A stretch of 62,425 nucleotides of DNA from a virus (lineage: Duplodnaviria > Heunggongvirae > Uroviricota > Caudoviricetes), in the IMG/VR virus record IMGVR_UViG_2877269240_000007, one strand, 5' to 3'. This document shows, piece by piece, positions 26,147 through 26,989 of this stretch. The translations under genes were made by a program, and so were the position numbers. Within the stretch, counting starts at the first letter, position 1. Each line of letters begins with the position of its first letter. Below the pieces are notes generated by a model, which was not told the origin of the DNA, searched no databases, and worked only from the letters and a program-made list of their open reading frames with translations.

Positions 26147-26176
26147 ATTGATTCTGCAATTTCGGGACGTTACACT
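26147..26176 (+). promoter_or_regulatory. sigma70-like promoter for antirepressor leader (copy B)
   Basis: TTGATT - 18 bp - TACACT. Confidence 0.45.
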
Positions 26177-26236
26177 GTCTCTGCACCTTATAAAGCGGGG
26201 GCCGGGATTGGCGTCCTGAAATTCAATATAGAGCAT

Positions 26237-26258
26237 AACCGCGCTCATGCGGTTTTTT
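26237..26258 (+). terminator. intrinsic terminator of short leader transcript (copy B)
   Basis: AACCGC-GCTCAT-GCGGTT hairpin plus T6. Confidence 0.55.
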
Positions 26259-26289
26259 CGTGTCATGAGCATTGCTACGCCCAAATTAT

Positions 26290-26368
26290 GGTGGGGCGTG
26301 CAGGGACATCGCAAGATGCGCCGGGTTCTATGTTGACCGGTTACGCCAACCCTGTACGTCTCACCACC
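26290..26368 (+). ncRNA. candidate antisense/riboregulator hairpin upstream of rha (copy B)
   Basis: hairpin GGTGGGGCGTGCAGGG...CCCTGTACGTCTCACCACC; loop shoulder ACGCCAACCC complements GATTGGCGTCC boxes at 26204-26216 and 26374-26384. Confidence 0.4.
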
Positions 26369-26425
26369 TCTGTGATTGGCGTCCCATGTGGTGAGTTCTT
26401 TGAATTCAACATAGGGGCTGTCACC

Positions 26426-26989
26426 ATGACTACTCTCCCAACCCTCTCTCAACCTGAAATTGCCATCGTTGATGGTTAGGCTGTTACTTCATCCCTGGCT
26501 GTTGCCAACTTCTTCTCTAAACGTCATGACGATGTTCTGAAAAAGATCCGCATTTTGGATTGTTCTCCAGAGTTTTGTGCCCGCAATTTTGCGGAGACAT
26601 CAATTTTGGTACGCCAGCCCAACGGCGGTACTCGCAAACTTCCCTGCTACCAAATTACCCGCGGCGGCTTCGCCTTCCTTGCTATGGGCTTCACTGGTAA
26701 ACGTGCCGCCCGGTTCAAAGAGGCATACATCAATGCCTTTAACCAGATGGAGAGGAGCTTATCAGGAGCTGGTGCGGCTGACATGTCATCTGTCGCACAA
26801 AACGCCAGAGGCGTATACCTGCATTTGCGTGAAATCCATCAAATCTGGACAAGCCAGCTTTACCCAATGCTTAAGGCCGTTGAATCTCCGCTGGCTGGCA
26901 AACTGTACGACCGTGTAGGTGATGCTGTTTTTGGTGCTGCACTTGTTGATTCCAGGCTGAATGGTTCTGACAAGGAGGTGCGCCCATGA
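26426..26989 (+). pseudogene. Rha/AntA-family antirepressor-like gene (copy B) with in-frame amber codon
   Basis: MTTLPTLSQPEIAIVDG-TAG-AVTSSLAVANFF...YQITRGGFAFLAMGFTGKRAARFKEAYINAFNQME; TAG at 26477-26479; alternative downstream start at 26555. Confidence 0.55.

Follow-up and report, generated by a model that had tools for sequence, protein, structure and literature searches.

What controls the Rha-type antirepressor gene that lies beside a divergent toxin gene in the viral sequence IMGVR_UViG_2877269240_000007 of IMG/VR (Caudoviricetes), and is the stretch between the two genes RNA, protein or a relic? The whole sequence of 62,425 nucleotides (nt) is referred to below as the window. Positions 26148-26428 of its plus strand hold a putative promoter, an IsrK-type RNA that ends at a terminator of its own, and a C4 antisense RNA; the Rha-family antirepressor gene (rha) follows directly downstream. 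We consider it highly probable that this locus is the C4/IsrK-type RNA module of a lambdoid prophage, which sets whether rha is translated. Its family membership, its fold, four complementarities together with their covariation, and the antirepressor context are demonstrated at the locus itself. This type of switch is already catalogued and experimentally studied, and the present locus, here called copy B, belongs to this known family and is decaying. Its elements are as follows.

26148-26176 (+): putative promoter, homologue of PisrK, with -35 TTGATT at 26148-26153, a 17-nt spacer and -10 TACACT at 26171-26176
26183-26259 (+): IsrK-type small RNA ending at its own intrinsic terminator; full-length match to Rfam RF01394, 58.1 bits against a threshold of 50
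26204-26214 (+): a1 target, GGG-A-TTGGCGT, complementary to a'
26223-26234 (+): b1 target, TCAATATAGAGC, the complement of the hairpin 2 loop in C4; duplex of -15.1 kcal/mol
26237-26259 (+): intrinsic terminator of IsrK, with a stem at 26237-26254 (7 base pairs, bp), a 4-nt loop and a T-run, from the terminator scan and the Rfam isrK structure
26290-26368 (+): C4-type antisense RNA; RF01695 match at 26284-26371, 74.8 bits against 45, covering the full model (1-87)
26325-26336 (+): b', the 12-nt loop of C4 hairpin 2, GUUCUAUGUUGA, co-varying with b1 and b2
26343-26352 (+): a', ACGCCAACCC, in the single-stranded junction of C4, 3' of the inner hairpin, co-varying with a1 and a2
26374-26382 (+): a2 target, with its core TTGGCGT at 26376-26382
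26406-26416 (+): b2 target, TCAACATAGGG, overlapping the rha Shine-Dalgarno sequence AGGGG (26413-26417); duplex of -12.1 kcal/mol
26426-26989 (+): interrupted Rha-family gene, a predicted antirepressor; Pfam Phage_pRha at 7e-26 when the stop is read as glutamine

The initial annotation, made from the sequence alone, had proposed a scan with the Rfam C4 model. Rfam was run over the whole window with the curated gathering scores (45 for RF01695 and 50 for RF01394), and it returned the C4 RNA at 26284-26371 as well as an IsrK RNA at 26183-26259, with E-values of 1e-12 to 1e-14. The mature C4 ends (26290-26368) were placed by alignment with the 77-nt c4 annotated in phage P1. The minimum-free-energy fold of this segment is a long hairpin at 26289-26366 (z = -4.06; 0 of 200 shuffles fold as well), and it equals the family structure, a long outer stem around two hairpins. 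The IsrK model consists of two 5' hairpins and a terminator hairpin, and its match begins 7 nt 3' of the promoter. Membership in this family is given by the Rfam score; stem 1 is mismatched by the G at 26200, and, folded as a single sequence, the segment does not stand out (z = -0.08). The IsrK segment is the equivalent of the a1/b1 leader of P1. The c4-a1b1 model was also tried on it and reached 17.8 bits against a threshold of 46.7; the IsrK model fits instead. The P1 leader scores 35 bits with the IsrK model and the IsrK of the Salmonella prophage Gifsy-1 scores 48 bits with the c4-a1b1 model; judged by these cross-matches, the two models describe one and the same element.

The two boxes, the long hairpin with its complement and the terminator downstream of box 1 had all been described before, and each is found where it was placed. 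The full first box is GGGATTGGCGTCC (26204-26216), the second is GATTGGCGTCC (26374-26384), 42 nt before the rha ATG at 26426, and the terminator is called by the terminator scan (stem 26237-26254 and T-run). The idea of duplicated target boxes complementary to an element of the hairpin also holds, these being a1, a' and a2 in P1 terms. Two details need correction: the element is the complement of the TTGGCGT core as claimed, but ACGCCAACCC lies in a single-stranded junction and not in a terminal loop; and the GGG/CCC extension of the pairing exists for box 1, where it requires a 1-nt bulge, but not for box 2. The earlier set of target sites was also incomplete, as the whole second series (b1, b' and b2) had been missed, including the b2 site on the rha Shine-Dalgarno sequence, which lies 8 nt ahead of the ATG. 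The b1 site follows the a1 hairpin and precedes the terminator. In copy B, none of the six boxes (recognition and target) is disrupted. In addition, a2 is flanked by CTCACCAC (26360-26367) and GTGGTGAG (26388-26395), which are able to form an alternative hairpin; this hairpin is conserved (96.7% paired among relatives), would form at the expense of the C4 outer stem and would present a2.

In order to compare the pairing scheme among related loci, viral contigs were scanned with the conserved 5' arm of C4. The 120 loci obtained represent 65 distinct units, which were aligned with MAFFT. Among these units, 12 a' cores and 29 b' loops are found, which make up 34 combinations; one loop may occur with different cores. 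In every specificity type the upstream and downstream boxes track the C4 sequence. The helix a1.a' is paired in 99.8% of the cells, with 7 of 10 pairs changed on both sides; the corresponding values are 87% and 11 of 12 for b1.b', and 88.6% and 10 of 11 for b'.b2. When the partners were slid by 1-3 columns as a control, 38-47% of the cells were paired, and the observed covariation scores were reached by 0 of 500 shuffles. The cognate duplexes exceed the non-cognate ones in stability by approximately 2-6 kcal/mol, the smallest gap (about 2 kcal/mol) being that of a'.a2. Within C4, the outer stem is 100% paired and four of the five pairs of hairpin 1 are compensatory. The b2 site ends in the Shine-Dalgarno sequence in all types, and the downstream gene in ten sampled loci always carries an antirepressor-type N-terminal domain (Rha, Bro-N, ORF6N or AntA). 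This covariation supports C4 pairing at all four sites, the two upstream of it and the two downstream. In about 2,000 of 5,426 complete Escherichia coli genomes there are matches to the unit together with its flanking genes, and the leader itself is matched in 174 phage records, including phages that convert to Shiga toxin (Stx) production. One of the viral contigs (IMGVR_UViG_3300036822_000286) apparently has two tandem IsrK-C4 leader modules, as seen from a repeated frame-0 translation pattern, each followed by the same short open reading frame (ORF) start.

The closest characterised relative is the isrK-orf45-anrP locus of Gifsy-1 in Salmonella Typhimurium, on which Rfam returned IsrK, C4 and c4-a1b1 matches. 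Both loci have the same order of promoter, IsrK with terminator, C4-like RNA, a2, b2 on the Shine-Dalgarno sequence and antirepressor gene; their a1, a' and a2 are identical (GGGATTGGCGTC, ACGCCAACCC and GATTGGCGTC), and the ATG in the C4 5' arm of copy B corresponds to the start of orf45. In contrast, the b specificity differs, the antirepressor is of the ORF6N type in Gifsy-1 and of the Rha type here, and orf45 stops on the anrP start (AUGA), which couples their translation, whereas the frame here continues into rha. The Gifsy-1 unit is located after the Q antiterminator and before isrJ, the present one before replication genes, and the present rha is a pseudogene; no Rfam match to isrJ was found anywhere in the window. 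In Gifsy-1, PisrK drives transcription of the operon and of anrP (Hershko-Shalev et al. 2016, PMC4825925, Table 1A). The long transcript is translationally silent, IsrK in trans activates translation of the antirepressor, and compensatory mutations confirmed that a1 pairs with a' (G28/G31 with C162/C159; PMC4825925). A processed RNA, STnc1160, derives from the C4 region. Copy B has the identical a1 and a' of that pairing, the functional test belonging to Gifsy-1 only.

The other well-known relative is the immI operon of P1 and P7, c4-icd-ant, which was reportedly described by Citron and Schuster in 1990 and 1992. The P1 record NC_005856 has the order promoter, a1, b1, 77-nt c4, a2 and b2 beside the icd ribosome-binding site, with 'a' pairing with the C4 junction and 'b' with the loop of hairpin 2. 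As in copy B, there are two recognition sequences, each with one upstream and one downstream target in identical order; b1 and c4 are separated by a terminator-like hairpin, b2 lies at the ribosome-binding site of the ORF that comes next, and an antirepressor gene is found downstream. Different specificities result in heteroimmunity. The C4 RNAs are homologous, P1 c4 reaching 68.8 bits on RF01695. This score and the 35 bits of the P1 leader on the IsrK model indicate that the P1, Gifsy-1 and present systems are therefore homologous. The likeness to the P1/P7 immunity layout noticed in the initial annotation is supported by the match to the P1 annotation, by Rfam and by covariation, except that an icd-like ORF is absent downstream of b2: the ORF there is the Rha-domain gene itself, which is the first regulated ORF. 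Ant1 and Ant2 are also absent, the upstream segment passes the IsrK model and not the c4-a1b1 model (17.8 against 46.7 bits), and the unit resides in a prophage of the lambdoid and not of the P1-like plasmid type. In P1, C4 is excised from a longer transcript as an RNA of about 77 nt, with its 5' end produced by RNase P, and repression occurs through a2/b2. There, icd is translationally coupled to ant1/ant2, and the C1 repressor controls the promoter region of the operon (Op51).

The P4 CI RNA (with seqA, seqB and seqC) and the N15 CA RNA are likewise processed C4-family RNAs that pair with sites on both sides. The latter is said to control antC, a finding attributed to Ravin et al. in 1999. 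The result in P4 is that transcription of replication genes terminates prematurely, and not that an antirepressor ribosome-binding site is masked. The sar RNA of P22 is also a small antisense RNA that blocks translation of an antirepressor gene, ant, but it is a true cis-antisense transcript of the opposite strand and is unrelated in sequence, structure and layout. An 'IsrK-C4 immunity system' common to P4, P1, P7, N15 and some lambdoid prophages was described by Barquist et al. 2013 (PMC3632133), with IsrK as a structural homologue of P4 seqA.

By analogy with Gifsy-1 and P1, the module would work as follows. Transcription would start at about 26183 from a promoter that looks constitutive, and most transcripts would end at the terminator (26237-26259), giving an IsrK RNA of approximately 77 nt that bears a1 and b1. 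The read-through RNA would carry the C4 element, then a2 and b2, and then rha. C4 would display b' in its hairpin loop and a' in the single-stranded junction, and their pairing with a2 and b2 would cover the rha Shine-Dalgarno sequence and keep rha silent, either in cis or, once C4 has been excised (as RNase P does in P1), in trans. The identical sites on IsrK would compete for a' and b'. Both the repression step through a2/b2, tested in P1, and the pairing and activation step of IsrK, tested in Gifsy-1, are supported here by covariation. The a and b sequences would jointly form a two-part specificity code, and copies with different codes should therefore not cross-talk. The window offers such a case in copy A, a sister unit with different specificity:

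8283-8590 (-): copy A, 61.5 bits (IsrK) and 75.7 bits (C4) in Rfam
8535-8459 (-): IsrK of copy A, 61.5 bits
8434-8347 (-): C4 of copy A, 75.7 bits; fold with z = -5.09, 0 of 200 shuffles as good

Its recognition sequences are a' = GUAGCAA and b' = UUUCGGUAGUCA, and its a1, b1, a2 and b2 match them. The rha gene of copy A (ATG at 8292) is intact and encodes 184 amino acids. Predicted cross-pairing between copies A and B is weak.

Is the leader also translated? A 276-codon frame drawn through the region had been called non-coding in the initial annotation. This is correct 5' of 26145, where the frame is antisense to the Pfam-supported toxin and antitoxin genes, and the leader shows no third-position excess, but the leader frame is conspicuously open in the relatives. 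Stops in the rha frame occur in 2 of 34 distinct Rha-linked leaders, compared with 34 of 34 in each other frame, and among 130 variants of the variable boxes those bearing a stop number 1, 44 and 54 in frames 0, +1 and +2. The base composition of the leader is codon-like in the rha frame (position-1 G 37.6%, position-1 T 15.9%). The C4 5' arm contains an ATG (26288) that shares the frame of rha, and no stop separates the two; in Rha-type loci the C4-arm ATG is 46-47 codons upstream of rha, with no stop in any of them. ATG 26288 is homologous to the start codon of orf45, from which translation takes place in Gifsy-1. In many loci a further ATG, provided with a Shine-Dalgarno sequence, lies immediately 5' of the -35 hexamer and overlaps the stop of a co-oriented upstream ORF (ATGA). 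Stops in the rha frame are present in P1 and in loci with Bro-N, ORF6N or AntA genes. Site variability at the three codon positions is 0.48/0.53/0.48 in the leader and 0.62/0.46/1.09 in rha. A conventional coding region was rejected on this absence of third-position variability, despite the open frame and the codon-like composition. Most likely the leader frame is open because ribosomes must be able to traverse it. As a tentative extension, in the Rha-linked branch the leader may be kept open in phase with rha, and ribosomes that enter it would melt the switch and make an N-terminally extended antirepressor escaping C4 control; we regard this as possible rather than probable. If true, a single stretch of 250 nt would hold both regulatory RNAs and double as a translated bypass, which would be a fused version of the orf45 coupling of Gifsy-1.

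Long coding sequences (CDS) that cover the IsrK-C4 leader are annotated by the Prokaryotic Genome Annotation Pipeline (PGAP) or in GenBank in four of the loci examined:

L001: 1485-2345
L126: 547-1704
L128: 541-1692
L129: 541-1689

The annotated products are a 286-amino-acid Rha in E. coli O121 and 'transcriptional regulators' of 382-385 amino acids in ST64B, mEp460 and cdtI. The long ORFs (about 383 amino acids) were considered as genes upstream of the module and rejected, since their variability there peaks at frame position 2. In ST64B-type phages (L126, 690-869, plus strand) the substitution pattern points to a 59-amino-acid ORF, in a frame unlike that of the annotated long CDS. The position-2 peak and the ORF in the other frame indicate that the long ORF is therefore over-extended upstream of the module. 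The long Rha and transcriptional-regulator CDSs that cover the leader are probably over-extended ORFs.

How much of the switch still works in copy B? Its rha has an in-frame TAG (amber) at codon 18 (26477-26479), where 99%-identical relatives have CAG; the Rha Pfam domain begins at residue 21 of the short protein. The closest match from 26145 onward is a prophage of E. coli O121 (99.8%). Against the 99%-identical relatives (this prophage and several viral contigs), 26200 T>G breaks stem 1 of IsrK and 26306 G>A breaks hairpin 1 of C4. The context upstream of copy B has been replaced relative to the relatives. The amber allele had no match in a scan of GTDB species-representative genomes, and the junction of toxin-antitoxin pair and leader had none in a scan of genome contigs. 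Because of the amber codon, any remaining activity would be confined to the RNA part (immunity in trans); since the RNA boxes are intact, residual immunity in trans is possible, with the protein output lost.

Several points weigh against a working switch of the kind proposed. As rha is a pseudogene here and two RNA stems are mismatched, the module may be inert. The promoter had been described as near-consensus with an 18-nt spacer; the hexamers are indeed in place, but the spacer has 17 nt, 8 of 12 consensus positions are matched, and the site was not called by the sigma-70 consensus scan. It is retained as a putative promoter on comparative grounds only, namely positional conservation (-35/-10-like hexamers, differing in sequence, at the equivalent position in about 100 homologous loci) and homology to PisrK, which was tested in Gifsy-1. 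With 7 bp the a'.a2 helix is short, and one sub-helix is only 58.5% paired, because MAFFT misaligns variants with a 3-nt insertion. Finally, a1 mutations in cis raise translation of the antirepressor in Gifsy-1 (PMC4825925, Table 1D). A pure model of IsrK as a decoy does not predict this effect, and the order of steps given above is therefore tentative.

Other explanations of the locus were also weighed. The Gifsy-1 mechanism alone could apply, in which the C4-like element is a structured mRNA leader (orf45) locked by IsrK pairing in cis and unlocked by IsrK in trans; this further implies no trans-acting C4 repressor and no role for a2 and b2. Genetic and structural work on Gifsy-1 explains regulation there without a2/b2, and constitutive STnc1160 failed to relieve IsrK toxicity. 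However, a2 and b2 co-vary with a' and b' over 12 and 29 specificity types, which is unexpected without a pairing role, b2 is placed on the Shine-Dalgarno sequence just as in P1, for which the annotation names a2/b2 pairing as the interaction that represses, and a stable processed STnc1160 species is present in Salmonella. We judge this explanation unlikely. A more serious possibility, although we lean against it, is that copy B is a functionless relic, a decaying copy in a prophage remnant riddled with insertion sequences (IS) that regulates nothing. The amber at codon 18, the mismatches at 26200 and 26306 in IsrK stem 1 and C4 hairpin 1, the replaced upstream context and the presence of at least nine IS copies within 62 kilobases (kb) are what a relic would show. 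Against it, both RNAs still exceed their Rfam thresholds, all six boxes are intact, Stx2c phages share 97.6% of the leader, and a resident C4 could act in trans on incoming phages of the same a/b code.

The stretch could also be protein-coding and specify the N-terminal region of a long Rha protein, with the RNA motifs incidental. This would agree with the scarcity of stops in the rha frame, both among the 34 leaders and among the 130 box variants, with the codon-like composition, with the upstream ATG and Shine-Dalgarno sequence of many loci, and with the long CDSs (286 to about 385 amino acids) that PGAP and GenBank annotate in relatives. We hold it to be very improbable: the leader has no third-position variability excess, both RNA families match, the covariation is explained only by RNA pairing, the Pfam Rha domain starts within the short protein, and the short start has a conserved Shine-Dalgarno sequence and ATG. 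Moreover, in the 383-amino-acid class the sequence ahead of the module shows coding evolution in a different frame, and the leader frame contains stops in P1 and in the Bro-N, ORF6N and AntA loci. In the present window no usable start exists upstream, because the stretch there is antisense to the toxin-antitoxin genes. Chance similarity of boxes and hairpin in an ordinary intergenic region deserves almost no weight. Short motifs do recur, and TTGGCGT alone occurs six times in the window, but the 11-mer GATTGGCGTCC occurs twice against 0.03 expected from shuffles, and the Rfam E-values together with the covariation over 65 units already refute chance.

The unit is located between the toxin-antitoxin pair with NinB and replication genes, upstream of the latter. 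The divergent pair is context and lies outside the switch; homologues of both proteins carry identical names in the PGAP annotation.

25480-26107 (-): divergent toxin-antitoxin pair
25778-26107 (-): Gp49/RelE-ParE-type toxin, Pfam Gp49 3e-25
25480-25788 (-): helix-turn-helix antitoxin, Pfam HTH_3 3e-11

Regarding the rest of the window, two insertion sequences, with at least nine copies that are 99-100% mutually identical, interrupt the prophage regions:

Set 1: 6052-7288, 16910-18174, 21770-23007, 34409-35464, 2611-3835, 36775-37861
Set 2: 4366-5622, 18806-20066, 23057-24314

Rfam also identified a sok antitoxin RNA of a hok/sok-type toxin-antitoxin locus at 15641-15816 (+; 117 bits) and an ALIL pseudoknot, the frameshift signal of the IS3 family, at 36323-36439 (-; 116 bits). 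A 1.19-kb inverted repeat, 97% identical, is found near both ends of the window (993-2180 and 59235-60422). Two near-identical arrays of four tRNA genes each (20691-20997 and 31513-31820, plus strand) lie inside a 98%-identical repeat; the paired arrays and the two IsrK-C4 copies suggest two related prophages or a duplication.

For the present window the outcome is an ordinary one, a decaying copy with its protein gene prematurely stopped. The practical value of the finding is in annotation: gene callers and GenBank routinely mark this RNA switch as protein, and the RNAs are unmarked in most phage records. Beyond this, the a/b code, with its two parts that reassort freely, predicts which prophages can silence one another's antirepressors, and thus bears on cross-induction among Stx and Gifsy-type prophages.

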